This document shows, one piece after another, positions 1,965-39,358 of a stretch of DNA of 64,000 nt. The stretch is from a virus (Duplodnaviria > Caudoviricetes), in the IMG/VR virus record IMGVR_UViG_3300047576_000027, positions 43,604 through 107,603 of that record. One strand, 5' to 3'. The notes under the pieces were generated by a model. It was not told the origin of the DNA. It saw only the letters and a program-made list of their open reading frames with translations, and did not search any database. The position numbers and the translations under genes were made by a program. Each line of letters begins with the position of its first letter. Within the stretch, counting starts at the first letter, position 1.

Positions 1965-2201
1965 TCACTCGCACTGAATGGTGTTCTGGTTGAACTTCTT
2001 CTTTTCACACGCCTTCGCACCATCTTCGTAGGCTTTGTTCAATTCAGCCGCCGCGGAGTCATACTGGGCTTTGGCGATAAAGTAGTTGCGCTGCGCAATG
2101 GCGATGGACGTTCGTATCTTATCCGGAATCACCGGCAACGCTTCTTTGGTTTCCTGAGCGAACAAAAGAGAACCGAGGAAAAGAAGGCAGAGTATGCGCA
2201 T
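1965..2201 (-). CDS. Small secreted coiled-coil protein (possible fibre accessory/chaperone)
   Basis: Signal peptide MRILCLLFLGSLLFA|Q; Cys pair in mature part; downstream of fibre gene. Confidence 0.65.
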   Translation of the reverse strand: MRILCLLFLGSLLFAQETKEALPVIPDKIRTSIAIAQRNYFIAKAQYDSAAAELNKAYEDGAKACEKKKFNQNTIQCE

Positions 2202-2596
2202 TATTTCATTACCAGCCCAGCGGCTTTCCGCGTCGACGTCGCTACGAGATCCTCAACCGTGAAAGATGTATTCGTGACCGGGCCACCGAGGTTAACCAGC
2301 ACGCCCGTGTAGCCTTCCGGGTTATCCAGCCTGCCCGTCACTCCGGAAATGGTTCTGACGGTTCCGTCCGCAAGCGTGCCGGTTACAGAATACGCATATC
2401 CAAGGACGGCCGAATTCTGCGTTCCGATCAGGAGAATATATTGCTCATTGCCGGGGACGAAGCCGTTGCAAAGTCCTTGGGGGGGCACTGCTGACTCACA
2501 CAGTTGCCACGGACCAGCGGCTATAAGGACCATATCGGAATTTTGGGAGATCGCGGGACTTGCAGCGATAAAAAGAAGGGAGACAATGGTTTTCAT
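2201..2596 (-). CDS. Small secreted beta-rich protein
   Basis: Signal peptide MKTIVSLLFIAASPAIS|Q; one Cys pair. Confidence 0.65.
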   Translation of the reverse strand: MKTIVSLLFIAASPAISQNSDMVLIAAGPWQLCESAVPPQGLCNGFVPGNEQYILLIGTQNSAVLGYAYSVTGTLADGTVRTISGVTGRLDNPEGYTGVLVNLGGPVTNTSFTVEDLVATSTRKAAGLVMK

Positions 2597-2649
2597 GAAT
2601 TAAAACCTATTCTTTTTCGCGATGCATGTCAAGGGTAATCTGAGTCTTT

Positions 2650-4893
2650 TTACGGGCAAATATTAACCACGCTGGAGTTGTTTATCAGGGAACCGGTGGG
2701 TAACCCCGAGCAAGACGTGGGGAGCGATCCCATCTGAACTTTCCCGACTGTATGCAATGCGTTCCCCGTACTTGTGTTCTGCCCGTATACCGCATCGCCC
2801 GTACTGGAAGAGAGTCCGCTCAGGCCGTTGCCAGTACCAGTCTGGACCACAGCAAACCCCGATCCTGCCGTTGCGAGCGTAACCGCGATGCCTGCATTGG
2901 CCGAGAGCGCAATACCAGATCCGGATTGCTGGATGTTGATTCCCTCCGTGGAATTATTGACCGTCACGGTTTCAAGTCCCGTTATTTGAGTTGCGCCCGT
3001 TATGTTGGTGGCCCCCGCAACAAGACTGCCATTTATCGTTACGCCAGACTGGAACGTCGCCCCGCCAGCGCTGTTAAGGTTGGCCGTACCGCTGGGACCA
3101 AACGTGAGCGGGCCGCCGACCAGATTTGCAGATTCGGTATACAGGTTATTGAAATAGTGGGATGCGTCCCCCAAGGTTGTGTTGGCCGTCACTGGAGTGA
3201 TCTCGCTGGCACCGCTGCCGGTCAGGGTAATATTCGGCCCAAACGTCGGACTATCCAACGGCCCGACATTTTGCAGATGGGTTCCGGAAAGCGTTCCTGA
3301 TACAGATAATGCCGCCAGCGATGTGGCCCCAGGGGTAACGGTGAGACTCGTGAACGTTGGCGTGTTGCCGCCAGTGACAACACACGCCCATGCGGTCCCG
3401 TTAAATACGCGCAGGCACGACAGCGAATCATCCCAGTACAACATGCCCTGCACCAGTCCCTCGCCCCAACTCAGAGGGTTTGTGACGTAGGCAATCGTAG
3501 ATGTGATATTCCCGCAACACCAGCCGACGAACGCCCCGCTGATGTGGTTGCTGACAGGGGCGACCGTCAATGGAACGGTGAGACTGCCGATGGTGTAAGA
3601 TCCGGCTACGGTAACACTTTCCGGAGAACTGTCCTCAAACGTTATCTGTACGCCGGGGGCAAGGCCGCCAGCGTTATTAACCAGCATGGACGTACTCACG
3701 CCCCCGGTGAGCGCGCCGGTAATTTTCGCACTTGCGGGAGGTCCCGCTGAATGCCCGACGTCTACGTGACCACCGAGGTAAGCATCGGCACCAATAGTTC
3801 CCGTCGTCGTTATGGTGCCAGCCGGATAAAGAACACCGCCGACGTAACTGTTCGATGTGATCCCGCCATAGTTGGTGATGGCATCGTAGTATTTGCTGTC
3901 GGTCGCGTACCCCCCGCGAAAGAAGGCATAGCCGTTTGAATTGAATCCGTAAATGGACTCTACAGGGAGAGGCTTCGTGCATCCGGATTGCCCCTCATCC
4001 TGCCAGGTAAGTCCGCCATCGCTCGTTGTTCCGCCAGAATCGTTAAACGTCGGGATGGCAGCCCCGGAGAGTCCTGTTCCGGTCGCCTGCTGTATGTGGC
4101 CGGCCGGGTCAACAATTTGAAACTGGATCGGATAAATAGTCGATGCGGCCCAGTTCGGAGACATCACGGGAGACGTACCGGACCATAGCACGGTGTCAGT
4201 CGGGCCAAAAGTCCCGATTGGCTGAGTCACAATGTTGTGCCCGAGCGTGTCATAACAAATATCAGCGGGCAGAGCCGGATTCGGATTATACAGCGTGGGT
4301 GGAATCACCAGCACGTCTTCAAACGACGGAGTTGTCGGATCGAACGCGGTCAGTGCTCCCCATGTAATCGGACTCGGTATGCCGCCTCCACTGGCTTTCA
4401 CGTCGTACGGCCCGTTATCGGGATAGAAATACCAATAGCCTGTGGGACTGGCCGTGAATGGGTTCGTCAGGATGGTTCCGTTATTATCAGAAAAGATCGC
4501 CGCTGGGGCGTTCACTGGCATGGAGTAGGAAACGTCCGTCTGGACGCCCGCGCTGGCGGTGATATTGAGCGTCGTGGGCGACGTGACGGAAGATATAGTG
4601 TAGGGTGTTCCGGAGATTGTGATCTGAAGATTGGACCATTCTCCGCTGGTGTTGAATGTGCCGCTGCTGGTTAAGGTAACGGTCGTGCCAGATGTCGAGA
4701 CCGTGCCGGTTAAGCCGCCAGCGTAAAACACCGAGAGACTGCAAGAGGGGTAGCTCTGCTGCACCTTTGTCACCGACTGCACTCCGGACGTCACCACCAC
4801 CTGGCCACCCTGTGTACAGTAGCCTGAAACGCGGGCACGGGCGAAAAGAGACGGGGCGAGAATCAAAAACAGCAAGGCTACGCGCTTCAGCAT
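2650..4893 (-). CDS. Tail fibre/spike-like protein with Sec signal peptide
   Basis: G/T/S-rich mosaic fibre segments (TNPFTASPTGYWYFY, DGGLTWQ, TTLGDASHYFNNLY); N-terminal MLKRVALLFLILAPSLFA. Confidence 0.75.
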   Translation of the reverse strand: MLKRVALLFLILAPSLFARARVSGYCTQGGQVVVTSGVQSVTKVQQSYPSCSLSVFYAGGLTGTVSTSGTTVTLTSSGTFNTSGEWSNLQITISGTPYTISSVTSPTTLNITASAGVQTDVSYSMPVNAPAAIFSDNNGTILTNPFTASPTGYWYFYPDNGPYDVKASGGGIPSPITWGALTAFDPTTPSFEDVLVIPPTLYNPNPALPADICYDTLGHNIVTQPIGTFGPTDTVLWSGTSPVMSPNWAASTIYPIQFQIVDPAGHIQQATGTGLSGAAIPTFNDSGGTTSDGGLTWQDEGQSGCTKPLPVESIYGFNSNGYAFFRGGYATDSKYYDAITNYGGITSNSYVGGVLYPAGTITTTGTIGADAYLGGHVDVGHSAGPPASAKITGALTGGVSTSMLVNNAGGLAPGVQITFEDSSPESVTVAGSYTIGSLTVPLTVAPVSNHISGAFVGWCCGNITSTIAYVTNPLSWGEGLVQGMLYWDDSLSCLRVFNGTAWACVVTGGNTPTFTSLTVTPGATSLAALSVSGTLSGTHLQNVGPLDSPTFGPNITLTGSGASEITPVTANTTLGDASHYFNNLYTESANLVGGPLTFGPSGTANLNSAGGATFQSGVTINGSLVAGATNITGATQITGLETVTVNNSTEGINIQQSGSGIALSANAGIAVTLATAGSGFAVVQTGTGNGLSGLSSSTGDAVYGQNTSTGNALHTVGKVQMGSLPTSCSGLPTGSLINNSSVVNICP

Positions 4894-5077: not shown

Positions 5078-5791
5078 ATGCCTGAATCCGTGCCGGTCGT
5101 AATCGTCACTCGGAACAACCTGCATCTCACAAAACGCACGCTGAAATCCGTGCTGGAGCAGGACGTCCCGGTGGAAGTCCTCGTCGTAGAGAATGACTCC
5201 AGCGACGGAACTGCGCAGTACCTGGCGACCAAGCATATTACCGTCATCCACACCCAGGAGCAGTGGGCGTTGGCGAAGTGCTGGAATGTGGCGTTGCAGT
5301 GTTTGTGGAAGGCGGGGTGGAAACGGGCACTGGTTCTAAACAACGACTGCGAAGTCGCCCCCTGTACCGCAAGAGTTCTCTCGGCAATGAACTGGCCGTT
5401 TGTAACCTGCGTCAGCGTTAATTCGGAGGAGCAATTCAACCGCGAACCGGAAATTGATTTAGACAGACTTAGGGCTACTGCGCGACCCCATCCGGATTAC
5501 AGTTGCTGGATGATCCGCAAAGAGGTCACAGACAAAAACATCTGGTTTAACGAGGAATGCTTTCCCGGATATTGTGAGGATTCATACCATCATAAATCTC
5601 TTCACGATACTGGAATAACGGCCCGATGCATTGATTTGGCGTTCCTGCACCACGGAGCATCCACACTCAAACACGCCACCCCCCGCGAAGCCCGTATCAT
5701 CCGCGAGGGTGCCGACCGGAACCGGCAGAGGTTTAAGGCAAAATACGGATGCTTGCCCGGTACGCCTGCCTATGAGGCGCTATTCGCGTGA
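5078..5791 (+). CDS. Glycosyltransferase family 2
   Basis: VVIVTRN, VVENDSSDGT, LNND, YCED and HHGAST motifs. Confidence 0.9.
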   Translation: MPESVPVVIVTRNNLHLTKRTLKSVLEQDVPVEVLVVENDSSDGTAQYLATKHITVIHTQEQWALAKCWNVALQCLWKAGWKRALVLNNDCEVAPCTARVLSAMNWPFVTCVSVNSEEQFNREPEIDLDRLRATARPHPDYSCWMIRKEVTDKNIWFNEECFPGYCEDSYHHKSLHDTGITARCIDLAFLHHGASTLKHATPREARIIREGADRNRQRFKAKYGCLPGTPAYEALFA

Positions 5792-6070
5792 TAAGCCTGA
5801 TTCTGAACGTCCTTGCCATCTCACCCGAACTGCTGTGGCGAGACTACAGATTTATCGGCTGCTTCCGTGATGCCTTCTGGTTTCACGCTTTCAGGAACGC
5901 ATCGGCGGATCTGCGGCTATACGAGACTTTGAATATTAGTGGGATTGACAAGAGGGGAGAAATATACGCTGACACCATTTGTTCGCTTTCCGGCTCCGAG
6001 TTTCACCGTTCTTCCACCGCTCAAGCATCGGGTGTATCCTTCGGTTGTCGTTCCGAGGGAGAAAAGGCCG

Positions 6071-6727
6071 ATGACGGCAGCTATCGGATTCAAATACCGG
6101 GATGGTATCGTGCTATGCGCTGACACGCTGTTGAGTGGCTCCATCGTCAGTCGGCACGCCAGTAAGATCGGCGGGTTCCGTTTCTCAGACGGCGTAGTTG
6201 TGTTTGCCATCGCGGGGCATACCGATATGGCGGAAGCCGCCATTCAGCAATGTGAGGAGCCATTGTGCGATTACAGGGGAACTCCACGAAAAAGAGCGAA
6301 GATAGCACAACACATACGAGAGACCCTGAAGCATGAATATGAGGATTTCATTATTAAAAACAATTACGAGGGCACCGCGAGGGACTACGCGATAATTGCG
6401 GCGATCTACTCTGAAGTTGACGGCATCGGGCTATACGCTACACACGGCCCCCAGATGAAGCGTTCCAGGGGATGTGAATTTATCGGGTCAGGAGAAACCC
6501 ATGCAATGCTCGCTATGGAGCGATTCGGCGGATACGATGGGGCAAAGAACTCAAACCTCGCACGAGCTTCATTGATAGCCACATATGCGTTGGGAAGCGC
6601 GAAGCGATATCAGCAGGATGCCGTAGGCGGAAAATCCGTCATAATTCATCTTGAATCCTCGGGGATGGTAAGTACTGCCCACGGATGCAACGATTCATTG
6701 ATCGAGAAGTACGCATGTGCGCGGTAA
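6071..6727 (+). CDS. Proteasome-beta/Anbu-like Ntn hydrolase (may have upstream extension to 5939)
   Basis: M-T-AAIGFKYRDGIVLCADT (Thr1), SKI, FAIAG, FIGSG and AVGG motifs. Confidence 0.75.
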   Translation: MTAAIGFKYRDGIVLCADTLLSGSIVSRHASKIGGFRFSDGVVVFAIAGHTDMAEAAIQQCEEPLCDYRGTPRKRAKIAQHIRETLKHEYEDFIIKNNYEGTARDYAIIAAIYSEVDGIGLYATHGPQMKRSRGCEFIGSGETHAMLAMERFGGYDGAKNSNLARASLIATYALGSAKRYQQDAVGGKSVIIHLESSGMVSTAHGCNDSLIEKYACAR

Positions 6728-14205: not shown

Positions 14206-17200
14206 TTAGGTCTTAAAAACTGCAAGTGAAATATAACTATCTTCCACCCATTGTTTTGTCTCTATCGTGAAGTCATCAGTAAACAGGGCGAAGTTCACAC
14301 CGCCACCGTCCAGCATGTACGCTGCGGACAGAAATTTAATTGCCTGTGGGAGCATTTGTTCCTGGATCATGAACTGGCCGCCAGTTGAGGGTATAGTAAC
14401 CACGAAAGACACTCCGTTTTGCTGCTGAATGGTGAAGGTAACAGGAGCGGTACTTATAAGTCCAGCGTATAATCTTTTGTGTGTTTTCCATCCCGGAAAG
14501 GCTAATGAAATGAACTGCGTCAGTACTCTTGTACTCAGAAAAGGCTGAATGTAAAAAGCAGGCTCAACGGCATATATACGTGGTCCGTCAGGACCGCCGC
14601 TCCAACTGAGTTTGATGGATATATTCCGGTACAAAGCCAGTTCTCCCGGCACCGAGGAAATATTCACGATATTTTGCTGTCGCGCCGCGACGGAAGTGAC
14701 GTTGACAACAGGCGAGTTAATTGAATTGTTGTTATAAAACTGAGCAGTCGCGATAACTCCCGCCTGATCTGAATCCACTATCCAGTCAGTAGGTAACTTT
14801 TGTGTTCTTTCATCCCCCCCATCCAAAGAAGGAATCTGCAACAAAGAATTTATCGTCGCCCCATTGTCCGTATCGCCGCCGACCTGGTACAGATTCCCCA
14901 ATGTCCGCGATAACTGGATAATCTGCATATTATTCGGTGAGTTTACCAGCCCCTCAACCAGATACTCGTACGACATCGGATCGTTGAATGAATGCGGAAA
15001 CCATCGTTTCTTCGGGATCTCGAAGCGGAACGTGACCTGATTGCCCTCGGTGTCCAGATACAAAAAACTAATCTCGTTATCAAGACACGACAACCGCATA
15101 AACGAAGTCTGCGTCATGTCCACCGGATAGAGGCCGTTCGTCACCGCTGCGGGTTGTCCTTCGTGAGGAAACAGCGGGTAAAGTTTTGGATCGGTGACAT
15201 TTTCCCCCGCCCTGATCGGTCCAGCGATAAATCCCGTCGCGCCCGATGGCATACGCCCCATCTGGCCCCCGGCAGATTCCCCATTTGCACCAGAACCCGG
15301 AAGGCGACGGGAGCCGGACGAATTGGTACGGCGACTGACCCTCCAGCGCCTGGATAAAAGAATAGCGGACGAGAAAGGTGTTTAGTCGTGATCCGGCAAA
15401 CACCAAACCGTTCCATACTTCGCCGGTCACCAGCGGTTCACTGGGTCCGGAAAGTTCGATGGTATTCTGGTCGCTCACACCATCGAGATTGGCGGTATTT
15501 GTGAAATAGAGCGTCCCCGCATTTACCAGGTCTCCCAACCCGAATGCCACAGGGGCAAAGGGGCCTTCCAGTGGCCCGAATACAATCGGCAACGGCTGGT
15601 TGGCGAGCGTAGGCGACTCGATGGAATAAGCGGCATTTGTCAGTACGCCAGCGTCTGACTGGATCTCAAGGTACGCGGGTGAATGCGGTTGCCCGCGTGT
15701 CAAATAAGCTACACCATTCAGCAGTATGATGGAATTCTGCAATAGATTGACATTGAACGTCGTACCGCTCACCCAGATGACCGAAGTGCCCACCACGTTC
15801 ACCACGCCCGTCCATGCCAGTCCGAGAGTCGGCCACGGCTGAAGTTGGGTCAGATCGGGCGATGGGTTGGTGGCTATGGTTTCATCGGCCAGCCCGTCCG
15901 TGAACGAGTTCGGACTGGCGTTGTTGTTCTGCACCGACCCGACATAAACGAATTCGGTGAGTGTTCCGCCCTCGCGGTAGATGTCCGAATAATCGACTCC
16001 GCCTGCTGTGGTTGTTGCCGGGGTGGCTACTATCGACTCCCGAAGCGGATCAAGCGAATATCGGGTTGTCGGCCCCGGAACTGAGAGTGCCCCGGTTGAG
16101 GAATCGCGGAAAACTGAATCGTAGAAGTACCCCGATGGCGCATTCGGCTGGATTACCGGCCCGTACGTACCGAAGAAATACCACCAGTCAAATCCCCAGT
16201 TGCAGACCCCCGTGGAGACGATTGTTATCCCGACCGCCTGAACGGCGGAAAAATCAAGGGCCAGATTGCCTCCGTTTTGAATCCCCTGCGAGATCGGAAT
16301 GACGATTTCGCCCCAGACCCCGGCACTGTTCTGTCCAAATGAACCGAGATCCTTCTGCGTTAGATTCCATTGCCAGAAGTTGCCCGTGAACGGTGTTCCG
16401 CCCGTTGCTGTCGCGGGGTCAATATCAATCAACAGCGTAAGCGTAGCGACGGTGAGAGGAGTTTCAAGAAACAGCGAGATATGCAGGTAATCGTTCGCGG
16501 GGTCGATGGTCCGGCCGTTTGCGTTCAGGCAATTGACCGGCGACCCGAACTTGATCCGGGCCGTGCCCGTCCCCGCCGCCGATCCCGAGTATGCGATGAA
16601 ATTGAACAGCGATGTTATGGTTTCCGTGGTGGCGTGTGCCAGTGCCGTGTAACAGTACCAGGAAAGCAACCCCGTCACGACTGATCCGGCACCGGCGGCG
16701 AAGGTGTGGACTGTTGAGCATCGCACCGAATAGGCGGTGCCGTCCGGTGAAAGAACGACGGAGAGAACGCGAATCACGTCTGTATGTGTTCCGTCTGCAA
16801 TCTGAATAAGGGAGTTCCTGTCCAGACCGCCCGGCAAGCCGTTCAGCACCAGAGAACACAACCCGGTCGATCCTGAGTCGTACTGGATAGCCTGCACATA
16901 GGAGGTCGCGATGGGGGTGTGAATCTCGCGAATCGTAACCGTTTCCTGGTTCCCGCCGCCTGAGTTGAGGACGATATTCATCCTCGCCCCGGTCCAGTTT
17001 GTTACGCCCGCAGACGGATTGATACATGCCCATCCCGCCGTACCTGAGTTGTAAAGGATATTCGCGATGGTGAATGCCCCGCCGTTGGTACGATCCTCGC
17101 CACCAGTGATACTCACGAAAGGGAGGGAAACGGTCCAGCCTACCGCCGAATTACCAGTCTCGACGGCGACGGATGCCGGGATGCCGAAATCGATGTTCGG

Positions 17201-17662
17201 GGCAGCATTCGGCGGGGTTACCCCGATTGCCCTCAGCGTCCCGTCCGCGCGGACTTTTACCTGCTTGTCCTGGTCGTAAACATACATCCACGATTCGGGT
17301 GAATTGTTGGGACGAAACGGGATCAGAGATAAAGGATTACCGGAGTAGCCAGAATCGATCTCGGCCAGAGCGGTTTCCTGGCCCTCCCACAGTTGAGTGC
17401 CGTTGCCGACAATGTAGGTGTAACCGGATGATACAAGGGATTCGTCCGGGTCGTTCAGTCGGCGGATTGAGTGCAGGAGTTTCGGGCCTCCGACGCCGGC
17501 TCCGAAAACCGAATAACCTGGCCGACCGTCGATTCGGCCTTCAGAGATGACTCTTGTGTTGAAAAGGTAGGGGAATGAACCTGGCGGCATCCGGTCTACC
17601 GGATGCACGAGGTCTATGCCGGAACAATCCATCCGGACCGGCAGTCTTTGAACTTCGGGCAA
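14206..17662 (-). CDS. Tail nozzle / tubular protein B-like, broken by +1 frameshift near 15207 (ORFs 15080-17662 and 14206-15261)
   Basis: HPVDRMPPGSFPYLFN start; beta-propeller-like repeats; AIGRDGIYRWTDQG continues as GENVTDPKLYPLF in the +1 frame. Confidence 0.7.
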
Positions 17663-17845: not shown

Positions 17846-18015
17846 TTCACCCTCCACTTATGGGAACGACGGGGACTGATGACTGTCAATCGCCCACAAG
17901 AGACGCATGTGACACAGTAGTTTTCAGGGGGCCATACCCAGACGTGCGTGTACCCACAATGACAGCATCGGAGCATTCCGTAGGCCCACTTCTCATCGTG
18001 GTGACGATGGGTCAC
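17842..18015 (-). CDS. Small zinc-ribbon protein
   Basis: CCHCG...CVSCG; GTGA coupling. Confidence 0.5.
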   Translation of the reverse strand: MTHRHHDEKWAYGMLRCCHCGYTHVWVWPPENYCVTCVSCGRLTVISPRRSHKWRVK

Positions 18016-19346
18016 TTCACCCCCGCCATCGGCCTGATATCCGGTCGCATCCCTTCTTCGCGCTGCCACTGGCCGAAAAGCGGTTCAAAGTATTTTATCT
18101 TCGCGGCGTTTACGCCCTTCCGCGTCGAAACGGCACGCATGAAGTTATCGTACAGTTCCATCGTGGCCTTGAGTTCCGTACCGCCGCACTTAACGAGCAG
18201 ATAATTACAGCAATAATCGATAACGTCCTGAAGGTTTTCTTCCCCGATCTGAAGGTATTGATTTGCAGTCGGCAACGGTGCCGGGGTCACCACGTCGGCA
18301 CCAATGGAATAGGGTTGATCGACCGCGCCAGGGTTAATGACAGCGAAGTCGTAGAGGATACCAGCCATCTGCGGAATCCCGATCTGGTTGCGCCAAAACG
18401 GGCACCCGGCATCGATGGCGGCCAGAGAATCGATCAGCAACGGATTTCCGTTACAGGTGAGCCGAATGATGGAACGGGCATCGCGGGCGAAAGCTACCGC
18501 CTGCTTGTAGCGCTGGGATGCATATTGGGCACGGAGGGGATCTACGATCTGATTCCCGCCGGTCAGAATTTCCTCCATCGCCGCATATTTGATGGCGTAA
18601 CACCATTCGTCCGGCACACCGATCAATGATGCGGGATTGGTAATATCAATCAGCAACGAATCGACCGTCACCGCTTCCAGTGTCCCGGCATTGAGCGGCG
18701 GGGGATACATCTGCAATACGAGCGGTGCAAGTTCGGCTTCCGAGTACGCCAGCGGCGCGCCGGGATCGACTTCCCATGCCTCGCTGGAATGGTCGAACAT
18801 CCATACGTCGTCGCGCCATAGATTCGACCATGCGCCGCCCGAATCCTGCCACGAGACACGGTGAACGAATACCGATGACTGGTCGAAACTCACGAGGCCG
18901 TTGGGTGGGGATACCGGTTCAAAATCGAAATGGACAGCGTTCGGGAAGTGTACGTCCAGGATGAATCTGTTCCGGGCACGCTGGATCGCTCCAGGGATTG
19001 CAGATATCGGGACTTGCCCCGATGCATTCGCACCCGAGATGCCACTCGCCGGTTCGAGAAGGTGGTATTGAATCTCAGTTGTGAGTTGAGAGAGCGTCGT
19101 GGTCCGCGAGCGCAGAAGCGGGAGTTTTTGGCTCAGGTCGTAGAATGGACTGCGATCAGTCGGGCGAGCGTTAAAGGACCCTCTTTGACGCCAGAAACTT
19201 GTGAGCGAACCAAAGACGCGGAGAGCCTCGTAGATTGCGTATGTGATTTCCGGTACAGTCCAAAAAACGGCGCTAGAATCATCGAGTAAAGAGGATATCT
19301 GCGATATCAACTGCGTCAGCGTGATCTGACTGTAGCCGCTCGGCAC
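18012..19346 (-). CDS. Head-tail adaptor / tail tubular protein A-like
   Basis: TLTQLISQISSLLDD...WTVPEITYAIYEA; LQMYPPP; VPDEWCYAIKYAA. Confidence 0.7.
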   Translation of the reverse strand: MPSGYSQITLTQLISQISSLLDDSSAVFWTVPEITYAIYEALRVFGSLTSFWRQRGSFNARPTDRSPFYDLSQKLPLLRSRTTTLSQLTTEIQYHLLEPASGISGANASGQVPISAIPGAIQRARNRFILDVHFPNAVHFDFEPVSPPNGLVSFDQSSVFVHRVSWQDSGGAWSNLWRDDVWMFDHSSEAWEVDPGAPLAYSEAELAPLVLQMYPPPLNAGTLEAVTVDSLLIDITNPASLIGVPDEWCYAIKYAAMEEILTGGNQIVDPLRAQYASQRYKQAVAFARDARSIIRLTCNGNPLLIDSLAAIDAGCPFWRNQIGIPQMAGILYDFAVINPGAVDQPYSIGADVVTPAPLPTANQYLQIGEENLQDVIDYCCNYLLVKCGGTELKATMELYDNFMRAVSTRKGVNAAKIKYFEPLFGQWQREEGMRPDIRPMAGVK

Positions 19347-19670: not shown

Positions 19671-21491
19671 TCAATTACAGAACCACCCTGTATAGCCGTA
19701 AACATAAGTGCAATCCACGCTGCCCAATGCAGGTACGGTGGCATTGAGAACCGTCAACGGAGAAAAGGTCGTATTGATAAACGTGATCCTCCTTTGATCC
19801 CAGCCGCGCGCTATAGAGGTTAAAGCCGTGCTGCCCGTAAGTCCGATAACTGCCGGATCGAGTGGGCCGGGGTCGAACGATGCGGCACTGGCCATAGTGG
19901 GAACGGTTGGTGCTCCGACATTATTTGCATAGACCCTATACGGGGTGGTTGACGAGTCCGTGAGGGGGCCGTTCGCATTTCCGCTGAGTTGGTTGCCGGT
20001 AACCGACCAGTTTGACACTCCAGAACCAATCGCAATACCGTAAGACTGAGTCGTTCCAACGTCGTAATAAGAACCGTTGAACTGACCACCGGTTATGTTC
20101 AAGCTCGTGACATTCCCTGCTGCGTACAGGCCATCGTACACGCCAATGCTGGCTATGCTGTTGCCAAGCGACCAAGCCCCGTTAATGGTGATGTTTGTAC
20201 CTCCCAGGATGTCAAACCCGTGGTGGCCGTTTATCACCGACTTATAGTCGGTAAATTTTATCTGCGAAATCGTCCCCGTGCTGCCAATGTAAACCCCGTC
20301 CTGCGTGGCGCAAGCCGACGCTGAATTCGCGAATATCCAATCGTTAACTATCCCCCCTGGCGGCGGGTTGATTACAAGCCCCTGCCCCGGATTGCAGTCC
20401 AGATAGACATTTATCCAGTTGCCAAATCTGGCAGTCTGGCCGCTCGGCGGGTCAATGAGAGCATCCTTGCCGCACCCGGTCACGTAGGTATTAGTGATAT
20501 CTTCCGCAGCGTCGCCAAGGATGTGGATGCCAATGCTCGTCAGGCCGACGTCCGTACAGGCGATCTGAATGTTATTGAGGAATGTGTTGCCGCCGTTGTC
20601 TGCATTAAACGTGATTCCGTCCCCGTTGTTGTACAGGATCACGATATTGTCCCAGGTGCCACGCTGGGTGATCTCCCCCGTTTGGTAAATCCCGTTGTTG
20701 ACGTAGTCAATGTTTATGTTTTTGAGGTTCAACTGAGCTTGATTATTGATATAAATTCCCGTGTTCGTATTAGATGTGGCAGGTCCGATAATTCTGAGAT
20801 TCTGAAGGCAGTTGCCCTGTCCGACGCCGCCTGGAGAATGGGGGCCGTCCTCGAATATGATATTGCCGGTGGAAGGACCGAGCCAATTCAGGACTACTGC
20901 GGGGAACGTTGAAACGCCCGACACGCACACGCCTTGTCCAATAATGGATATCTGACCGTATATATTCCATGTTCCTGCCTGGACTAAAACGTTACCGCCA
21001 GATGGTATTGTCGTCGCTGCCTCTTGAATTCCTGCGGATGCGCTTTGGACAGTCCATTGCCCGCTGTGACTGTTGGCGCAGGTCATGATAATGGTCCCTG
21101 AAGGTGCGCCAGACACGGCCGTTCCGCCCGTGACAAGACAAGATTCCGGAGTGCCAGTTCCACCGGAAGCATACATGTAGTAATTAACGTTTGTTCCGTT
21201 GACGCCGGGAGGGACTGGCCTTAGAGTGATGGAGTTTGAGCCCGGGTTGAGAGTCCCGCCTGGAGCCTGCGCCGCGAAATTAAAGTTGCTCGCGATAACG
21301 CTTCCCTGCCCGGCGATTACCTGGCTGTAGAGATTCGCGAAATTGGTATTGATCGTGGCCCTGGAGTCGCTCACCAGCTCCGTTCCCTGTATGACCGTGG
21401 GCGGCGGGGGAGTCTGCGAAAATGCAGGCCACGCTAAAATAAGGGTTGCCGCTATGGATGCTGTAAGTCTGGTCAAGGCGTCAGTCTTCAT
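19671..21491 (-). CDS. Beta-helix tailspike with Sec signal peptide
   Basis: Likely start MKTDALTRLTASIAATLILAWPAFS|Q; INTNFANLY docking motif; pectin-lyase-like repeats. Confidence 0.8.
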   Translation of the reverse strand: MKTDALTRLTASIAATLILAWPAFSQTPPPPTVIQGTELVSDSRATINTNFANLYSQVIAGQGSVIASNFNFAAQAPGGTLNPGSNSITLRPVPPGVNGTNVNYYMYASGGTGTPESCLVTGGTAVSGAPSGTIIMTCANSHSGQWTVQSASAGIQEAATTIPSGGNVLVQAGTWNIYGQISIIGQGVCVSGVSTFPAVVLNWLGPSTGNIIFEDGPHSPGGVGQGNCLQNLRIIGPATSNTNTGIYINNQAQLNLKNINIDYVNNGIYQTGEITQRGTWDNIVILYNNGDGITFNADNGGNTFLNNIQIACTDVGLTSIGIHILGDAAEDITNTYVTGCGKDALIDPPSGQTARFGNWINVYLDCNPGQGLVINPPPGGIVNDWIFANSASACATQDGVYIGSTGTISQIKFTDYKSVINGHHGFDILGGTNITINGAWSLGNSIASIGVYDGLYAAGNVTSLNITGGQFNGSYYDVGTTQSYGIAIGSGVSNWSVTGNQLSGNANGPLTDSSTTPYRVYANNVGAPTVPTMASAASFDPGPLDPAVIGLTGSTALTSIARGWDQRRITFINTTFSPLTVLNATVPALGSVDCTYVYGYTGWFCN

Positions 21492-21505
21492 CTCTTGTTT
21501 TCGCC

Positions 21506-23590
21506 TTAAAAGGTGGTAAGTGCCGACCGTTTCCAGGTGTTCGTCGCCGTGCAGACGTAAAAATACGAGGTGTCCCAAACCGCCGTTCCCGTTATGCACG
21601 TGCTGGAGCTGCTGGGAGGGGTTGCAAGAGGTTGATTAAAAACCCCGGTAATAGTCAGGTTTCCGGCACTGTCCACGATCAAAGGCGAAACCAACCCCGA
21701 TCCTGTCTCGAACACCGCGTTCAGTTTTCCACCTATCGGCCCCAACCACCACACCCCGCTGGCAGTCGTGCTACCTCCTATGGAGAAGATCAAGTTTGAT
21801 ATATTCCCTGAGGCCGAACGGTCAACCAGCAGGCTTGATGCCGATTGTCCGGAACCGAAAATAGAAGACGGGCCAGTTGTCGTGACGAGCGGAGCCTGCA
21901 ACGATACGCTTGCATTTACTGTTTGCGGGTATTGCACACCATCGCACTCGTAAACGCCGTTTAAAACTGACGTCCCAATACCGGACGGAAACACGCATCC
22001 CCACCCGACTCCGCTGTTGGCTCTCACCTGGTTCCAGTCGTTATTTGTGACCGAGATAAATGTCCCTGCCCCGCTTCCCTTGTCATCGGTCCTGTTCCCA
22101 ATTATTGTGGCGCGCGCGCTCTGCACGTTTATGGTCGGGTGAGTATAACTCGTGTTGCCCTGCCTGAAAAAGTGCCCGTCATTAACGATAAGACTTCCGC
22201 CCCCGGAGGTTGAGTCGCTGATGCTTGATATGTCGGCAGCCAGAGTCCACATCCAGGCATTAGTTATCTGTAAGTCCATCTCTCCATCCCCCGACAGCAA
22301 AACCAGAGGGCTGGAACCGGCAGTGCCGCCAGGATAGAAGAAGAAGTTTGTCGCCTTGACGTTCGTTGGTTGCCCCGGACAGCTTGAATTGGATACGTTC
22401 AGAACGGGAATGGAACCCAAGCTCCCCTGTGAAAAGCTGGTATTTGTGAACTCGTAGAATCCGCAGGTGATGTTTATATCGCCGTTGGTGTCAACCGTGG
22501 TGTTTACGAAGTGTGCGGGGAATGCCCACCCGCCAGATCCGACTACCGAATTGTATCCGCCGACCGAGTGAATCGAATAGGTGAAGTAATCAGTAACATG
22601 CAGGTCGTCTGCGCGCCCTATGTAAAGACCGTATATGTTGTTGGACAAATTTGTGAACGCGCTCAGTTGATTTGCTGTCATTTGATTCGCGACGGTTCCG
22701 TAAGGCCAAAATCGGACTTTGTCCAGATAAGTAGAGTCTGCTGCTCCGTCGATCTGAATCCCCTTGTCAAACATCGATGCCTGTAGATTTGTAATGGATG
22801 AGCCGCCCGCCTCAGCCCTCATGTCAACAACGTCCCATGCCAAAAAGACGCTTACATTGGTAATCGAAAATCTGGATACACCCTGAAAATAGAATGTTGG
22901 TGGCCAGTGGGTATAAAGGGAAATATTCGTCGAATCCGGTTGCGCATAAGTTACATTGAAATCGTGTACAACACAGCCGAATCCGGCAAAAGGAGCACCG
23001 ATAAACAGACCTTGCACGGTCAGGGGAAAATCAGCAGCAACCGTCAACGTCGTCGTCCAGATACCTTGCCCTCCAATGTTTTGATTTAGAGGGCAGTAAA
23101 CCGGCCCGTGTATGGTCACCGGAGCGGTGATCTGCACGCTGGTATTGCCCGCGGCGATGGCTTCAGGGAGTCCTCCCGCAACAGACCGGACTGACCATGC
23201 TCCGCTATGTGAATTGGCCGCAATGAACGTTATCGTCCCGACAGATGCCCCCGAGATGCACGACCCGCCAGTTATCATATCGGACTCGGCATTCCCCGAC
23301 CCGCCATAAAAATATAGCCAGTGGTCCGTGTCGTTTCCATTGACGCCCTGGGGACACGGAGACAGTGTGACTATGTTGAAGCCGGGGGAAATGGTGCCGC
23401 CCGGCATCTGCGGCGTAAAATTGTAGTTCTGGGCGGCTACAATCGGGAGACTGAGGAACTGATTCTCCAGGTATGCGAAATTATTGTTAATAATCGTGGG
23501 GCCGTTGCTGATGAGGTCGTTGGGCTGAATAACCGTTATCTGACCTGCCGCCACAGATGAAAACAACAATGCCAGAACAATCTTTTCCAT
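21506..23590 (-). CDS. Beta-helix tailspike with Sec signal peptide
   Basis: RBS AGGAGA; MEKIVLALLFSSVAAG|Q; INNNFAYLE docking motif; C-terminal WDTSYFYVCTATNTWKR. Confidence 0.8.
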   Translation of the reverse strand: MEKIVLALLFSSVAAGQITVIQPNDLISNGPTIINNNFAYLENQFLSLPIVAAQNYNFTPQMPGGTISPGFNIVTLSPCPQGVNGNDTDHWLYFYGGSGNAESDMITGGSCISGASVGTITFIAANSHSGAWSVRSVAGGLPEAIAAGNTSVQITAPVTIHGPVYCPLNQNIGGQGIWTTTLTVAADFPLTVQGLFIGAPFAGFGCVVHDFNVTYAQPDSTNISLYTHWPPTFYFQGVSRFSITNVSVFLAWDVVDMRAEAGGSSITNLQASMFDKGIQIDGAADSTYLDKVRFWPYGTVANQMTANQLSAFTNLSNNIYGLYIGRADDLHVTDYFTYSIHSVGGYNSVVGSGGWAFPAHFVNTTVDTNGDINITCGFYEFTNTSFSQGSLGSIPVLNVSNSSCPGQPTNVKATNFFFYPGGTAGSSPLVLLSGDGEMDLQITNAWMWTLAADISSISDSTSGGGSLIVNDGHFFRQGNTSYTHPTINVQSARATIIGNRTDDKGSGAGTFISVTNNDWNQVRANSGVGWGCVFPSGIGTSVLNGVYECDGVQYPQTVNASVSLQAPLVTTTGPSSIFGSGQSASSLLVDRSASGNISNLIFSIGGSTTASGVWWLGPIGGKLNAVFETGSGLVSPLIVDSAGNLTITGVFNQPLATPPSSSSTCITGTAVWDTSYFYVCTATNTWKRSALTTF

Positions 23591-23604
23591 TATTTTCACT
23601 TCTC

Positions 23605-26172
23605 CTAAAATGACAAAAACGGTGCGTGCGTTGCCTGCCAGTGCCCGTCGTTCCACGGCCCCGCGAACGGCCAGTCTTCGTATGTAAGCCTTGTGATTCC
23701 AATATTTTCGTCGTTAACTTCCAGATCCACTATCAGATTCTCATACCGCTCCCGATGATAATTAGCCAGTTGCAGGCTGAAGTACGGATTGGGGTGATCC
23801 ATATCCGCGCCGGGGTACGTCGCACATTTCTCAAGTGCCATCTCCAGAATTATTTCTCCGCGATTCGCAATGGGTGGGGGGAGAATAGGATTCTGCGCGG
23901 TCAGGTCGGTTTCCTTGACAAAGTAGATGAACGGGTACAGGTAACCATTAAAAGATGGCGCAGGCCACAGTTCATACCGCGCTACCCCGCTCGTGAGAAT
24001 TGATTCGGCGTTGATAGTGAACACGTCGCCGGCCACGTAAATGAGCGGACTCCCCCATGTATTGTTGTCGTCTTCCCACGGGATCGGCAGTTCCTGCCAG
24101 GTCGGCCCTGTTCCGCTGGGCCAGTAAACCTGTACGCCATCCGCGAGATCCTGCGGGGTTGTGGATGTGACAACCGGCAGGGAGAATACCAGTTGTCCGG
24201 CCCGCATCCACTGGAATGTGGCTACCCCGGCAGGGCCGCCGGTTACCACCTGGATGATGTAGACGGCACTGTCCGGGTATGTATATCCGAGTGTAGTTAC
24301 AGAAACAGGTGCCGGGTCTGTGGGAGATGTTACGGAGTTTACCGGGCCGATGATGCCGCCAAGATTGTTCGTAAAATCGTAGAATGCGATAGCGTACGTC
24401 TGCCCCTGGTTGGTCCGTTGCGGGTCGAGCATCGCCAGTTCATATTCCGTCGCCTGAGTCCACAACCTGTATCCGTCTTTGATGGATACGGCTACCTCAA
24501 AATAGCCGAAGTCGGCGGGGACCGGATAATACACCTGCAAAATCTGATAAGCGACAACTGAGACATCCTCGCCCGCCCACGGCTGATCGATGAGAATTTG
24601 GTTGGCTGAAAGCCATCCGGTAATCGTGTAGTAGGGGAAAAGCAAACCGCCGGCCCGTATCTGAGATCCGATCATGGATGGGGTCCATTCCGTCCCCGTG
24701 CCGGTGATAAGGTTCGGATTCCCGTTCGCCACATTCGTTGATACCCATCCGGCAGAGTAAAGCGTCGGCGGGGCGAATGTTCCGGACTTTCTCCGCCAGG
24801 ACCAGTCCTTGCGTGCCTGAAGAGCGTGCCATGAATCGTTGATCATTTGCTCGGCAAGCTGGATGCCGATAGCGGGACAACGGTCGAGAAGCCTGTTTGA
24901 GAGAGTATTGAAATCGTCTCCGCCAGTCGATCCCGAGATGAGTGCCGGACGCGGTCGTATAGTCCACGGCGCGGGGGCCATCGGGTAATTTTCGTAATTC
25001 CGGTTGGATACGGACACCTCTTCGTCAGCGGTTGCAAGCTCAGCAATGAATTTGTCTGCCCGTGTCTCGTGCAGGCTGGCAAGTTCCAGGTTGAAATAAA
25101 CGTTCGGATGCTCGCTGTCCTGCCCCGGAAACCGTGCGCAGGCAGCAAGCGCCATCTCCAGAATCACATCCCCGCGATTAGCGACAAATGGCGGCAGCGT
25201 CGGATTTTCCGCGTTGATATCGTATTCTTTTGCGATGTAAATATAGGGGTAAACGGAACCGGCGCCCGTGGGTGTCGGAGATGGCCATAATTCATATCGA
25301 GGCGCACTCTGTGTTACCTGTGATTTACAATTGATAATGAACGAATCCCCGGCCACGTATGTACCGGCCGGCCAGTAAACCTGCACGCCATCACTCAGGT
25401 CCTGCACGCTCCCCGAAGTGATCTGTATCGGCTGAAAGGACTGCTGTCCTGCGCGAAGCCACTGGAATGTGGCCGTTCCCACTGTGCCGCCGGACACGAC
25501 CTGAACGACGTACGATGCGTCTGCCGGATAACTGTAACCGAATGTTGTAGTACTTATGGGTGCCGGACCGGTGGGCGACGTGACCGGGATTACGGGACCG
25601 ATAACACCGCTGTAGTTGACGGTAAAGTCGCGGAATGCTGTAGCAAAAGCCGTTCCCTGGTTGGTCCGCTGCGGGTCGAGGACTGCCAGTTCGTTCTGAG
25701 TTACCGAAGTCCAGAGCCTCTGGTTGTTCTGAGTCGAAACAACGACATGGAAATAGTTGAAATCCGCCGGAACGGAATAGTAAGTCCGCAGTATTTGGTA
25801 CTGCTGCGATAAGACGTCGGGGCCAGCCCACGGCTGGTCGATCAGTATCTGGCCGGGGGAAAGATACTGCGAGATCGTGTAGAACGGATAAAGGGGACCG
25901 CCGATCCGGATTTGCAATCCGACCATTTGGGGAGTCCAGTTGCCCGTTCCGCTGATGAGATTGGGATAGCCAAGTGCGGCGGCTGTGGATGCCGCCCCGA
26001 CACTGTACACAACTGGCGGCGAAAACGTGCCCGATCTCCGCCTGAAACTCCACTCCCTGCGCGCCTGGAACTGGTGCCACGCATCATTAACCAACTGGCC
26101 CGCGAGAACAATCCCCACCGCCGGGCAGCGATTCTGGAGTCGATTGGTGAGCGTGGTGAAATTATCGGCCAT
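23605..26172 (-). CDS. Tandemly duplicated head-tail adaptor/ring protein
   Basis: Two ~420-aa homologous halves (FTTLTNRLQNRCP / FNTLSNRLLDRCP ... RYELWP). Confidence 0.75.
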   Translation of the reverse strand: MADNFTTLTNRLQNRCPAVGIVLAGQLVNDAWHQFQARREWSFRRRSGTFSPPVVYSVGAASTAAALGYPNLISGTGNWTPQMVGLQIRIGGPLYPFYTISQYLSPGQILIDQPWAGPDVLSQQYQILRTYYSVPADFNYFHVVVSTQNNQRLWTSVTQNELAVLDPQRTNQGTAFATAFRDFTVNYSGVIGPVIPVTSPTGPAPISTTTFGYSYPADASYVVQVVSGGTVGTATFQWLRAGQQSFQPIQITSGSVQDLSDGVQVYWPAGTYVAGDSFIINCKSQVTQSAPRYELWPSPTPTGAGSVYPYIYIAKEYDINAENPTLPPFVANRGDVILEMALAACARFPGQDSEHPNVYFNLELASLHETRADKFIAELATADEEVSVSNRNYENYPMAPAPWTIRPRPALISGSTGGDDFNTLSNRLLDRCPAIGIQLAEQMINDSWHALQARKDWSWRRKSGTFAPPTLYSAGWVSTNVANGNPNLITGTGTEWTPSMIGSQIRAGGLLFPYYTITGWLSANQILIDQPWAGEDVSVVAYQILQVYYPVPADFGYFEVAVSIKDGYRLWTQATEYELAMLDPQRTNQGQTYAIAFYDFTNNLGGIIGPVNSVTSPTDPAPVSVTTLGYTYPDSAVYIIQVVTGGPAGVATFQWMRAGQLVFSLPVVTSTTPQDLADGVQVYWPSGTGPTWQELPIPWEDDNNTWGSPLIYVAGDVFTINAESILTSGVARYELWPAPSFNGYLYPFIYFVKETDLTAQNPILPPPIANRGEIILEMALEKCATYPGADMDHPNPYFSLQLANYHRERYENLIVDLEVNDENIGITRLTYEDWPFAGPWNDGHWQATHAPFLSF

Positions 26173-28002: not shown

Positions 28003-29202
28003 TCACCCCTGGCAGTTAAAGCCGTACGTTACGTATCCCGGCAAAAAACTAAAATTGTGCGCCAGCAACACTTTCCCCACCAGCTTCGTGTTCCCCGCCG
28101 ACGGAATAAATCCGTCATCATCCAACGACCCGTCAAACGGCTTGGATTTGCTGGTCCGGTACTTGATCATCGGCTTGCGGATGTTCTCCACCCAGATGGT
28201 TTCGCCGAAGATGTTGCCGCCGGTCCCTACGCCGCCCGACCCGTTGCCCCACATCGCGGACGGTGCCGGGTAGGAGGTAGCATTTGAACCGGTCGCGTAA
28301 TTGATCATGCGGGTCGCGGTGCGGTCGTTGGTGCCGTTGGTGTTCGGAGTCGTTGCCGGGTTGGTTGACGCCACGCCGTTGGCGGGGTTCATCAGGTACG
28401 ATCCGGGCGCGTAACGCGAAGCATAGATTACAGCCGCGTTGTATTCGAGTCCCCTGAATCCGCCCTTGGCTGTCGTGACGTTCTGAAATCGCTGCTGGGT
28501 CTGGAAGTTGTTGCGGATGAAACTGTAAGCGATGGCGGTCGTGGTGATAACGTTCGGTTCGTACTTGCCGGAACCGAAGTTGACCGCCTGGTACATCTGA
28601 TCGAGAATCGGCAGCGTGATCGTGCCTCCCGCGAAGTTGTACGGTTTGGGAGCCAGCATACGGCCGCCGTAGAGGGATCGGGTCAGGGTTCCGTAAACCG
28701 GATAGGTATTGCCGTCCCATCCGATGTTGATACCGTCCGAGGATGCTTCCAGCAGACCATTCGGGAACTTTGAAAATGCCGCCGACTGGCCCTGAAGATA
28801 GCGCTGAATCGCAGTCTGCGCGCCCAACTGGACGAAGGCCGCGTCCACGCGCTCCGTCACGAGGTTGACGATTGCGAGCGCATCGCCCGCTACGTTGAAC
28901 ACGCGGATGGCTTCCTTGTTGAAGGGAATCATCGCCACGTTGAACTTGGGCAGGAACTGGAGCGCCTGCTCGATCTGCCGCTGGTCAGCCGGCAAGTCCT
29001 GGCCCATTGAGTAAGGACCGCCATCCTGCACGTCGTACTCGATGTTGTCATTCCAGTTCAGGCCACCCATTATTTGTTCATGGCACTCGTCGCCAATCAG
29101 GGACATCGTGGGATCGTGCTGGAAGACCATATCGCGAAGTTGCGGATTCTGGTCGATGTATCGCCGTGTGGTTACGGCGAGCATCCCTGCGGTATCTGGC
29201 AT
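28003..29202 (-). CDS. Major capsid protein (HK97 fold)
   Basis: 399 aa after scaffold; LAVTTRRYI, PNVITTT, QTQQRF, GFRGLEYN motifs; RBS GGAGG. Confidence 0.85.
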   Translation of the reverse strand: MPDTAGMLAVTTRRYIDQNPQLRDMVFQHDPTMSLIGDECHEQIMGGLNWNDNIEYDVQDGGPYSMGQDLPADQRQIEQALQFLPKFNVAMIPFNKEAIRVFNVAGDALAIVNLVTERVDAAFVQLGAQTAIQRYLQGQSAAFSKFPNGLLEASSDGINIGWDGNTYPVYGTLTRSLYGGRMLAPKPYNFAGGTITLPILDQMYQAVNFGSGKYEPNVITTTAIAYSFIRNNFQTQQRFQNVTTAKGGFRGLEYNAAVIYASRYAPGSYLMNPANGVASTNPATTPNTNGTNDRTATRMINYATGSNATSYPAPSAMWGNGSGGVGTGGNIFGETIWVENIRKPMIKYRTSKSKPFDGSLDDDGFIPSAGNTKLVGKVLLAHNFSFLPGYVTYGFNCQG

Positions 29203-39018: not shown

Positions 39019-39043
39019 AAAGACAACCTGATCTGGGCTACGG

Positions 39044-39358
39044 TCAGTTGACAGCAGTCGTGGGCGCAATCGGCGGATCTGGCACGGCTACCACCGCCTT
39101 GTGCGGCACTCGTTCCCGAAACAAACCAGACGCCATGTTCGCGGCCCAGTGCTGAAAGTCCGGATTACCAGCGAGTTCCGTTGGCCGCGCCGGGATCGCC
39201 GCGCCGTTGTTCTTATGCTCGGTCCAAAGTTTCGACACAATAGCGCAGACCGTCGTGTGATCGGGACCGCCAGGGCCGCAGATTTGCTTGCAGGACGGAC
39301 AGGGCTGGCCGGGAACTGGCTTGTAGCCGGCGATGTGCTCGTAATCAACAATGTTCAT
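39044..39358 (-). CDS. Zinc-finger protein
   Basis: CPSC...H...C; ATGA coupling. Confidence 0.55.
   Translation of the reverse strand: MNIVDYEHIAGYKPVPGQPCPSCKQICGPGGPDHTTVCAIVSKLWTEHKNNGAAIPARPTELAGNPDFQHWAANMASGLFRERVPHKAVVAVPDPPIAPTTAVN

Follow-up and report, generated by a model that had tools for sequence, protein, structure and literature searches.

Why should a phage tail fibre, together with two small proteins encoded directly behind it, begin with a signal peptide? The question is raised by three genes at positions 1965-4893 of a 64,000-nucleotide stretch of DNA (the window), which is the final 64 kb of a 107,603-bp IMG/VR virus record (IMGVR_UViG_3300047576_000027, positions 43,604 to 107,603) that CheckV rates as complete. 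The source is a tailed phage. An earlier note, made from the sequence alone, had read the three genes as a fibre-plus-chaperone module moved to the periplasm. We found that the first gene, of 747 amino acids (aa), belongs to a large family of phage fibres in which an export signal and a pair of cysteines are conserved. Our preferred reading is that it encodes a receptor-binding tail fibre that is exported by Sec, folds in the periplasm and joins the virion at lysis, a proposal that we regard as evenly balanced between right and wrong.

Signal peptides and cysteine pairs of the fibre family

At the N-terminus of all three open reading frames (ORFs), one or two basic residues precede an uncharged hydrophobic stretch that leads to a small-x-small (A-x-A) site. 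A gap of 53 nucleotides separates the stop codon of the fibre gene from the 131-aa ORF, which in turn shares base 2201 with the 78-aa ORF in a TAATG overlap. Codon-usage log-odds, trained on the long genes of the phage (mean 0.17 ± 0.06), were 0.21-0.22 for all three ORFs in their own frames (0.21 for the 131-aa and 0.22 for the 78-aa ORF), while four of the five other frames of the small ORFs scored negative and none exceeded 0.12. Since the own-frame scores match those of long genes and the other frames score low, the small ORFs are real genes by this measure. The earlier note had described three exported-type genes in one cassette with the 747-aa gene first, and its account of the ORFs, signal peptides and cysteines was accurate: the fibre has exactly 10 Cys (positions 26, 51, 213, 305, 459, 460, 493, 504, 728 and 746), including GYC/PSC, LSC/WAC and TSC/ICP, and each small protein has one mature pair (Cys33 and Cys43 in the 131-aa protein, Cys65 and Cys77 in the 78-aa protein). 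No sigma-70-like promoter was found, and terminator-like sites were at chance level. Searches of Pfam, PHROG and NCBIfam gave no match for the three proteins except a sub-threshold one of the 78-aa protein to the unrelated Pfam family Methyltransf_33 (E 0.01; 15.4 bits, where the cut-off is 23).

The 747-aa product begins MLKRVALLFLILAPSLFA, then RARVSGYC, and has the three regions of a signal peptidase I (SPase I) signal peptide: an n-region (MLKR), an h-region (VALLFLILAPSL) and a c-region (L-F-A). Our signal-peptide calls rest on a heuristic of our own, the family logo and conservation, with a basic n-region, an uncharged hydrophobic h-region of at least 9 residues and small residues at -1 and -3 as the criteria. 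AlphaFold2 placed a signal-peptide helix at residues 2-17 and the first strand of the N-terminal sandwich from residue 22. A Tat signal was considered and rejected, there being no twin-Arg consensus and a strongly hydrophobic core.

An exhaustive phmmer search of 1.84 billion representative proteins returned 1187 matches to the 747-aa protein at E up to 0.001, and all of the homologues came from metagenomes. We chose 110 representative members that are at most 50% identical. Our heuristic found the hydrophobic region in 98 of them; the remaining 12 have just 7-23 residues ahead of the N-terminal domain (N-domain). Three of these 12 were checked (P0008, P0014 and P0069, at loci L010, L011 and L012), and in each a signal peptide is regained when translation starts at an in-frame ATG or GTG further upstream, which marks them as gene-calling errors. 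Conservation of the signal peptides, on which the case put forward in the earlier note depended, is therefore borne out. Genes of this family are often called from start codons 3' of the signal peptide.

The sequence of the signal peptide varies freely across the roughly 110 members, and the Sec-type build is kept in nearly all. At the junction the family logo reads (A/V/L)-F-(A/G)↓R-x-R-x-(S/Q)-G-(Y/W/F)-C, where the arrow marks the predicted cleavage site. Nine of 104 members have Met exactly at mature position +1, which may be chance or may permit a second isoform without a signal peptide; no internal start for such an isoform was found in the window fibre gene.

The cysteines behave as pairs, as had been claimed for them. 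Cys26 and Cys51 occur together in 100 of the 110 members (Cys26 alone in 7, neither in 3), Cys493 and Cys504 occur together in five copies of the neck motif and are both absent from two, and all three of the tips that we could compare retain their pair. The N-domain pair is lost in cytoplasmic tailspike homologues, described below. This co-variation and the change from Cys to Ala in the cytoplasmic tailspikes fit structural disulfides, as far as sequence can indicate.

A modular fibre and its gene neighbourhoods

Roughly 110 of the top 150 matches to the 747-aa protein cover residues 1-190 only and differ in their C-termini, and between one and five matches remain past residue 520. A conserved N-terminus joined to exchangeable C-terminal modules is the build of a modular receptor-binding protein. 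The fibre is a mosaic of five parts, namely the N-domain, a unit of about 57 aa, a module at residues 303-391, the neck motif (466-505) and a rare C-terminal part. The 57-aa unit occurs once in the window fibre (247-304) and in 10-14 copies in other proteins, and the modules at 247-304, 303-391 and 466-505 all recur in other architectures. A few relatives carry Beta_helix or pectate-lyase domains, and one, P0094, has Gp34_trimer. In an AlphaFold2 model from a 55-sequence alignment, residues 1-188 mostly had a predicted local distance difference test score (pLDDT) above 90 and residues 380-460 were well modelled; the rest was poor, with pLDDT below 50 for residues 508-649 and 686-747 of the monomer. 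The fibre had no sequence match among PDB chains at E up to 1, and a Foldseek search of PDB with the whole model returned weak local rows alone.

In a structural all-against-all search (VIA), residues 19-187 fell among transthyretin-like and CnaB-type sandwiches. The phage folds among these had middling scores (Z 8.0 for the Pam1 tail machine, 6.2-6.9 for the head-binding domain of the P22 tailspike, 6.1 for Sf6 gp14N). A search of predicted viral structures (BFVD) gave several matches of about 167 columns (probability 1.0), their targets being members of the pectate lyase superfamily from uncultured Caudovirales and proteins of Loktanella phage pCB2051-A. The decisive link to tailspikes is one of sequence profiles. 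A tblastn search with the window N-domain found no match in 50,697 isolated phages, and the link to isolates was reached through the adaptor, then by profile comparison. Among those same phages the adaptor matches only Tunturi_1 and Tunturi_2, podoviruses of the acidobacterium Tunturiibacter psychrotolerans (PMC11924767). A profile of the short form of the N-domain, which lacks the 60-126 insert, aligned by hhalign with two annotated tailspikes, that of Serratia phage MTx (residues 15-68; 96.9%, E 1.4e-10) and that of E. coli phage ECO1230-10 (residues 15-80; 96.4%, E 1.3e-9). Both tailspikes begin directly with the N-domain, without a signal peptide, and have Ala at the position of Cys51. Judged by these sequences, the N-domain exists in two forms, a cytoplasmic one without the Cys pair and one with both an export signal and the pair. 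It is presumed to be the virion-attachment module.

Two exact-pattern scans of 185,579 species genomes found no N-domain, an absence that is weak evidence in itself. Because its relatives sit in phage tail modules and none was found in species genomes, the 747-aa protein is supported as a phage protein of the fibre or tailspike type rather than a chromosomal adhesin. The concern that its homologues might be exclusively chromosomal, non-phage adhesins was thus not borne out. The family also differs from the two INxNF tailspikes at 19671-23656, so the fibre is the independent case of an exported-type appendage that the earlier note took it to be.

We examined the neighbourhoods of ten other loci. 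In L001, L005 and L006 the fibre gene is preceded by the adaptor gene and followed by that of the nozzle, which places those members in the tail module, and Tunturi_2 gp12 follows the tail protein gp11. On an ENA contig carrying the family member P0010, the adaptor is followed by two genes (1426 and 164 aa) and then by the fibre. In the window and in L002, L004 and L009 the fibre comes after two large internal proteins, roughly at the position of the T7 fibre gene. The window fibre lies about 2.9 kb past the internal-protein genes on the same strand, with small ORFs and a plus-strand block intervening. In these four phages it is always flanked by a divergent family 2 glycosyltransferase (GT2) gene and a convergent island of glycan-building genes, which together include Methyltransf_11, GT_PLOD, RMNT_CmcI, Methyltransf_21, GT2 and GT4 members, with a B12-radical SAM enzyme in L004. 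Positions 1-1896 of the window are the near end of this island, which extends upstream of the window in the ORF map of the genome. Its role could be to alter the host surface or to glycosylate the fibre ahead of export; by analogy with some bacterial adhesins, its glycosyltransferases and methyltransferases might add sugars to the fibre before it leaves the cytoplasm. Between the divergent GT2 gene and the internal-protein genes lies a plus-strand gene for a proteasome/HslV-like peptidase (5939-6727; Pfam Proteasome, E 4.6e-5; PHROG 1040).

These neighbourhoods bear on a different explanation, in which the exported protein does not belong to the virion. The infected cell would release it, or display it on its surface, as a fibre or enzyme, with the small proteins as its partners, and it could loosen host exopolysaccharide (EPS), destroy or mask receptors, or hold cells together. 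The canonical and conserved signal peptide fits this explanation, as do the location of the window gene in the glycan-building island outside the core tail module, its synteny with L002, L004 and L009, and the dozen or so signal-peptide proteins of this phage, several of them large. There are bacterial precedents in the MAT fibres of Bdellovibrio, which have the same build (PMC10769870), and in WceF, an EPS enzyme with a tailspike fold (PMC7949094). We nevertheless consider a free exported protein unlikely. The members in L001, L005 and L006 lie between adaptor and nozzle genes, virion tailspikes open with a homologue of the N-domain, and no family member was found in bacterial genomes by the pattern scans. 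Moreover, Tunturi_2 would be left without an obvious receptor-binding protein, its gp12, gp13, gp14 and gp17 all having a signal peptide.

The coordinates of the cassette and of other features are collected in Table 1. In addition to the head and tail genes listed there, the window encodes a primase-helicase and DNA methyltransferases. The phage is probably a podovirus-like soil phage with a host among the Acidobacteriota. About 12 of its roughly 130 genes begin with predicted signal peptides, and several of these are large; they include a block of five (129, 922, 576, 477 and 1094 aa) and two tailspikes beside the adaptor gene. An 855-aa protein (23605-26172) consists of two similar halves of about 420 aa, and its N-terminal part is homologous to Tunturi_2 gp11 ('tail protein', 330 aa); the exported fibres may dock on this protein. 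The nozzle gene looks split by a frameshift at 14206-17662. Residues 1-857 of the 1149-aa nozzle protein of L005 align with the window in frame -1 (17662 down to 15119) and residues 818-1149 in frame -2 (15198 down to 14209), which could reflect an assembly error, a real break or programmed frameshifting.

Table 1. Features of the fibre cassette, its surroundings and the rest of the phage. Coordinates are window positions unless stated otherwise.
Feature	Coordinates	Strand	Remarks
Fibre gene, 747 aa	2650-4893	minus	ORF
Fibre signal peptide, residues 1-18	4840-4893	minus	MLKR, hydrophobic core and L-F-A; predicted SPase I site after Ala18
Conserved N-domain, residues 19-189	4327-4839	minus	Transthyretin-like β-sandwich, Cys26-Cys51
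Subdomain inserted in N-domain, residues 60-126	4516-4716	minus	AlphaFold2
Mosaic middle, residues 195-505	3379-4311	minus	Module boundaries from high-scoring segment pairs
β-domain, residues 388-462	3508-3732	minus	VIA: phage Chi tail tip Z 10.0, JBD30 baseplate Z 8.3
Neck motif, residues 466-505	3379-3498	minus	Co-varying Cys493/Cys504
C-terminal shaft and tip, residues 506-747	2653-3378	minus	Few homologues; AlphaFold2 model poor
Tip, last 56 residues	2653-2820	minus	PTSCSGLPTG...CP; Cys728/Cys746
131-aa orphan gene	2201-2596	minus	ORF
131-aa signal peptide, residues 1-17	2546-2596	minus	Predicted
78-aa gene	1965-2201	minus	ORF
78-aa signal peptide, residues 1-15	2157-2201	minus	Predicted
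P0160, 81 aa	L006:3848-4093		37% identity to 78-aa protein, E 5e-14
GT2-like gene	1-726	plus	Weak Pfam match; convergent with fibre
Methyltransf_24	723-1277	plus	Pfam; convergent with fibre
Methyltransf_11	1270-1896	plus	Pfam; convergent with fibre
Divergent GT2 glycosyltransferase	5078-5791	plus	Pfam Glycos_transf_2, E 1.6e-11; also upstream of fibre in L002, L004, L009
Nozzle	15080-17662		Homologous to Tunturi_2 gp32
SU10-type adaptor	18012-19346		
Major head protein	28003-29202		
Portal	32196-34211		
Large terminase	37765-39069		
Signal-peptide genes	19671-23656; genome 15677-16324, 19900-20667, 29825-39411 (upstream of window)		

Small proteins behind the fibre tip

The 131-aa product begins MKTIVSLLFIAASPAIS↓Q and the 78-aa product MRILCLLFLGSLLFA↓Q. 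In a word-seeded search of 5.8 billion proteins each matched itself alone. Models of the 131-aa protein were of little use (AlphaFold2 pLDDT 37.8, unusable; Atlas pLDDT 0.51, with generic Ig/FN3-like neighbours). The 78-aa protein is probably helical.

A homologue of the 78-aa protein, P0160, was found only as the neighbour of a fibre that shares the tip of the window fibre. That fibre, P0094 in L006, is 50% identical to the window fibre over residues 692-747, including PTSCSGLPTG...CP, and the gene for P0160 lies directly behind it and ahead of the nozzle gene. P0160 keeps a signal peptide, the AIAQRNY...AK.QYD core and the C-terminal Cys pair. Because the window fibre and P0094 otherwise share the N-domain alone, the 78-aa protein seems, from this one further case, to track the fibre tip, which makes it a candidate fibre-tip partner. 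The third tip-sharing fibre, P0152 (28% identity over residues 557-747), is followed by genes of 110, 79 and 73 aa. Exact-pattern scans of IMG/VR and JGI metagenomes found neither the fibre tip nor the 78-aa protein, an absence that again is weak evidence.

Of the idea that the cassette is a fibre-chaperone module, then, the placement stands: the small genes lie directly 3' of the fibre gene, and one of them recurs behind a fibre with a matching tip. The chaperone identity does not follow, with no match to a chaperone family, an orphan in the 131-aa protein and most relatives without such a gene. Neither small protein resembles Tunturi_2 gp15 or gp16, or the further small proteins of exported type that the genome encodes. 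A 113-aa helical protein of exported type behind P0014 (L011), built like the 78-aa protein and with a C-x11-C pattern, was considered as a further homologue and kept as an analogue alone, its hhalign probability of 29.5% not being significant. Spanin and lipoprotein readings were rejected, since the 131-aa protein, the 78-aa protein and P0160 have no L-x-x-C lipobox at the end of the h-region. The neighbours of the small genes are fibre, methyltransferase or nozzle genes. In L004, a 76-aa ORF with an N-terminal segment resembling a membrane anchor overlaps the fibre stop codon (L004:12364-12594); it is unrelated to the small proteins of the window.

It is possible that the fibre behaves as we propose and that the small proteins serve another purpose. 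They might mask receptors or exclude superinfecting phages in the manner of T5 Llp and Cor, or the 78-aa protein might, in the way of T2 gp38, remain attached to the tip and form part of the adhesin. Both Llp and Cor are small exported lipoproteins encoded beside a receptor-binding gene, whose specificity they match, and in T5 llp adjoins the gene for pb5. The small proteins here are likewise of exported type, have a Cys pair and are encoded beside the fibre gene, and co-evolution with a receptor would also be expected to make the 78-aa protein track the tip. We find this alternative rather doubtful as a whole. It is opposed by the missing lipobox, which sets the 131-aa protein, the 78-aa protein and P0160 apart from Llp and Cor, by the lack of any PHROG or Pfam match for the small proteins, and by the position of the small gene of L006, wedged between two tail structural genes.

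A possible two-compartment assembly route and its relation to known systems

In the assembly route that we propose, the fibre would be made as a Sec pre-protein consisting of a cleavable signal peptide, a docking β-sandwich N-domain, a mosaic shaft and a rare tip. Sec would export it, with cleavage after Ala18 (F-A), and its Cys pairs 26-51, 493-504 and 728-746, and probably also 213-305 and 459-460, would be oxidised in the periplasm. There the fibre would trimerise, aided or capped by the co-translated 78-aa protein and perhaps by the 131-aa protein too. Its N-domain would dock on fibre-less particles built in the cytoplasm only once lysis opens the envelope.

The strongest indirect argument that fibres of this kind reach the virion comes from Tunturi_2. 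Its large fibre-like proteins gp12, gp13 (tail fiber), gp14 (pectin lyase) and gp17 (virion structural protein), as well as the small gp16, all open with predicted signal peptides. A plaque-forming phage needs a receptor-binding protein, and since all of the obvious candidates in Tunturi_2 carry export signals, such proteins should reach the particle. Several phages are known whose particles, made without fibres or spikes, can be completed in vitro, which makes late attachment of a fibre physically reasonable. The MAT fibres of Bdellovibrio provide a precedent for the export step, being phage-like trimeric fibres of the same layout that are exported and functional (PMC10769870).

Several observations weigh against the proposal. 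The assembly of tailed phages is otherwise cytoplasmic. The window fibre gene itself lies outside the core tail module in the glycan-building island, a position that would suit a secreted enzyme or adhesin, and behind the fibre of most relatives there is no gene for a small exported protein. The 131-aa protein has no known homologue, and the link between the tip and the 78-aa protein rests on two phages, one of them being the window phage itself. P0152 has the neck and tip Cys pairs and no recognisable signal peptide, so that Cys pairs alone are no proof of periplasmic folding. Cys density was also rejected as a marker of compartment, since proteins that are not exported and cytoplasmic tailspikes are equally rich in Cys. 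The P22 tailspike forms transient disulfides in the cytoplasm (PMC3357383), and a preprint expects the same tailspike to lack a signal peptide, as it needs to cross no membrane (10.64898/2026.09.13.751334). The paper on Tunturi_2 mentions neither signal peptides nor virion proteomics (PMC11924767).

One further adverse point concerns the region just behind the signal peptide. Arg occupies +1 in 73 of 104 members and +3 in 72 of 104, the window fibre included, so that the fibre has the basic cluster that should be missing after a cleavage site. Export studies in E. coli have found that basic residues right after a signal peptide slow Sec translocation. An uncleaved N-terminus would account for this. 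Such a segment would anchor the fibre at the cytoplasmic side of the membrane or aid its assembly; the fibre itself would stay cytoplasmic and join the tail in the usual way, its cysteines being oxidised only after release. Under this explanation the conserved Arg residues, which balance the charge of the n-region and should hinder translocation, make sense, as does the retention of Cys pairs in P0152 without a signal peptide, and the standard route of assembly is retained. We judge it quite improbable all the same. The sequence of the segment varies freely while its three-part Sec build and A-x-A box are always kept, and neither the segment nor the Cys pair is present in the cytoplasmic homologues. 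The 131-aa protein, the 78-aa protein and the other exported-type proteins of the phage have ordinary A-x-A↓Q sites with no early basic residues, and both of the co-translated small proteins carry signal peptides of their own.

Should the fibre indeed be exported by Sec and attached at lysis, the route could extend beyond a single phage. A podovirus lineage, at least of Acidobacteriota, may routinely export its receptor-binding fibres and tailspikes by Sec, fold them in the periplasm with disulfides and sometimes with small tip-specific partners, and become infectious only when the two compartments mix at lysis. This wider version is tentative, and we lean somewhat against it. Such a two-compartment assembly route would be undescribed for tailed phages.

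What sets this family apart is more than a thousand members with export signals, a protein of a cultured phage among them, set against the expectation that tailed phages are completed in the cytoplasm. The modular tail fibre and the small accessory gene matched to its tip are known kinds. New, as read from the sequences, would be an export signal that is consistent across a whole fibre family, the gain of a disulfide pair relative to cytoplasmic homologues, and an exported accessory protein. Our literature searches found no description of consistent export signals on a fibre family, of such a gain of paired Cys or of an exported fibre accessory. If the proposal is true, the completion of virions depends on lysis, fibres stabilised by disulfides are explained as an adaptation to harsh soil, and the small proteins define a new class of periplasmic fibre helpers. 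Annotation would need correcting, since gene callers often drop the signal peptide. Engineering of receptor-binding proteins or depolymerases from soil phages would also be affected, as an oxidising compartment may be needed for their folding. The idea is directly testable, because Tunturi_2 and its host are in culture.

Among known proteins, one of the closest is Tunturi_2 gp12 (PP885685), annotated as hypothetical, which has a signal peptide and an N-domain with the Cys pair (hhalign 98.9%, E 2e-17). Tunturi_2 is a podovirus of Acidobacteriota, as the window phage probably is too, and the two phages have homologous adaptors and nozzles. In contrast to the window fibre, gp12 (1190 aa) has an N-domain of the short form, in which the 60-126 insert is missing, ends in a different C-terminus and is encoded behind gp11 rather than in a glycosyltransferase island. 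MTx gp038 and vB_EcoM_ECO1230-10 gp17 have a homologous N-terminal β-sandwich with a TVTVY...NPFTA...YD core and, like members of the window fibre family, are large modular receptor-binding proteins encoded among tail genes. They differ in having no signal peptide, Ala in place of Cys51 and no Cys26 hairpin, and their phages are myoviruses of Enterobacteria.

By description, the MAT fibres of Bdellovibrio bacteriovorus resemble the window fibre in their signal peptide, conserved β-rich N-domain (about 130 aa), mosaic build and swappable tips (PMC10769870); they are tailspike-like and trimeric, as the window fibre is proposed to be. Their genes are bacterial, and the fibres are shown on the surface of the cell that makes them, whereas the genes of the window family are phage-borne and sit in tail modules, which argues against membership in that group. 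The small genes recall those for lambda Tfa, Mu/P2 Tfa and T4 gp38 and gp57A in lying directly behind the fibre gene and, going by the 78-aa protein in two phages, apparently in being matched to the tip. Unlike the 78-aa and 131-aa proteins, Tfa, gp38 and gp57A are cytoplasmic without a signal peptide, and no sequence or profile similarity to them was found. Use of the host export machinery by phage-encoded proteins, predicted here, is shared with Sec-exported and signal-anchor-release endolysins and with T5 Llp and Cor. Those are proteins of lysis or exclusion, and Llp and Cor bear a lipobox, whereas the protein at the head of this cassette would be a part of the virion itself.

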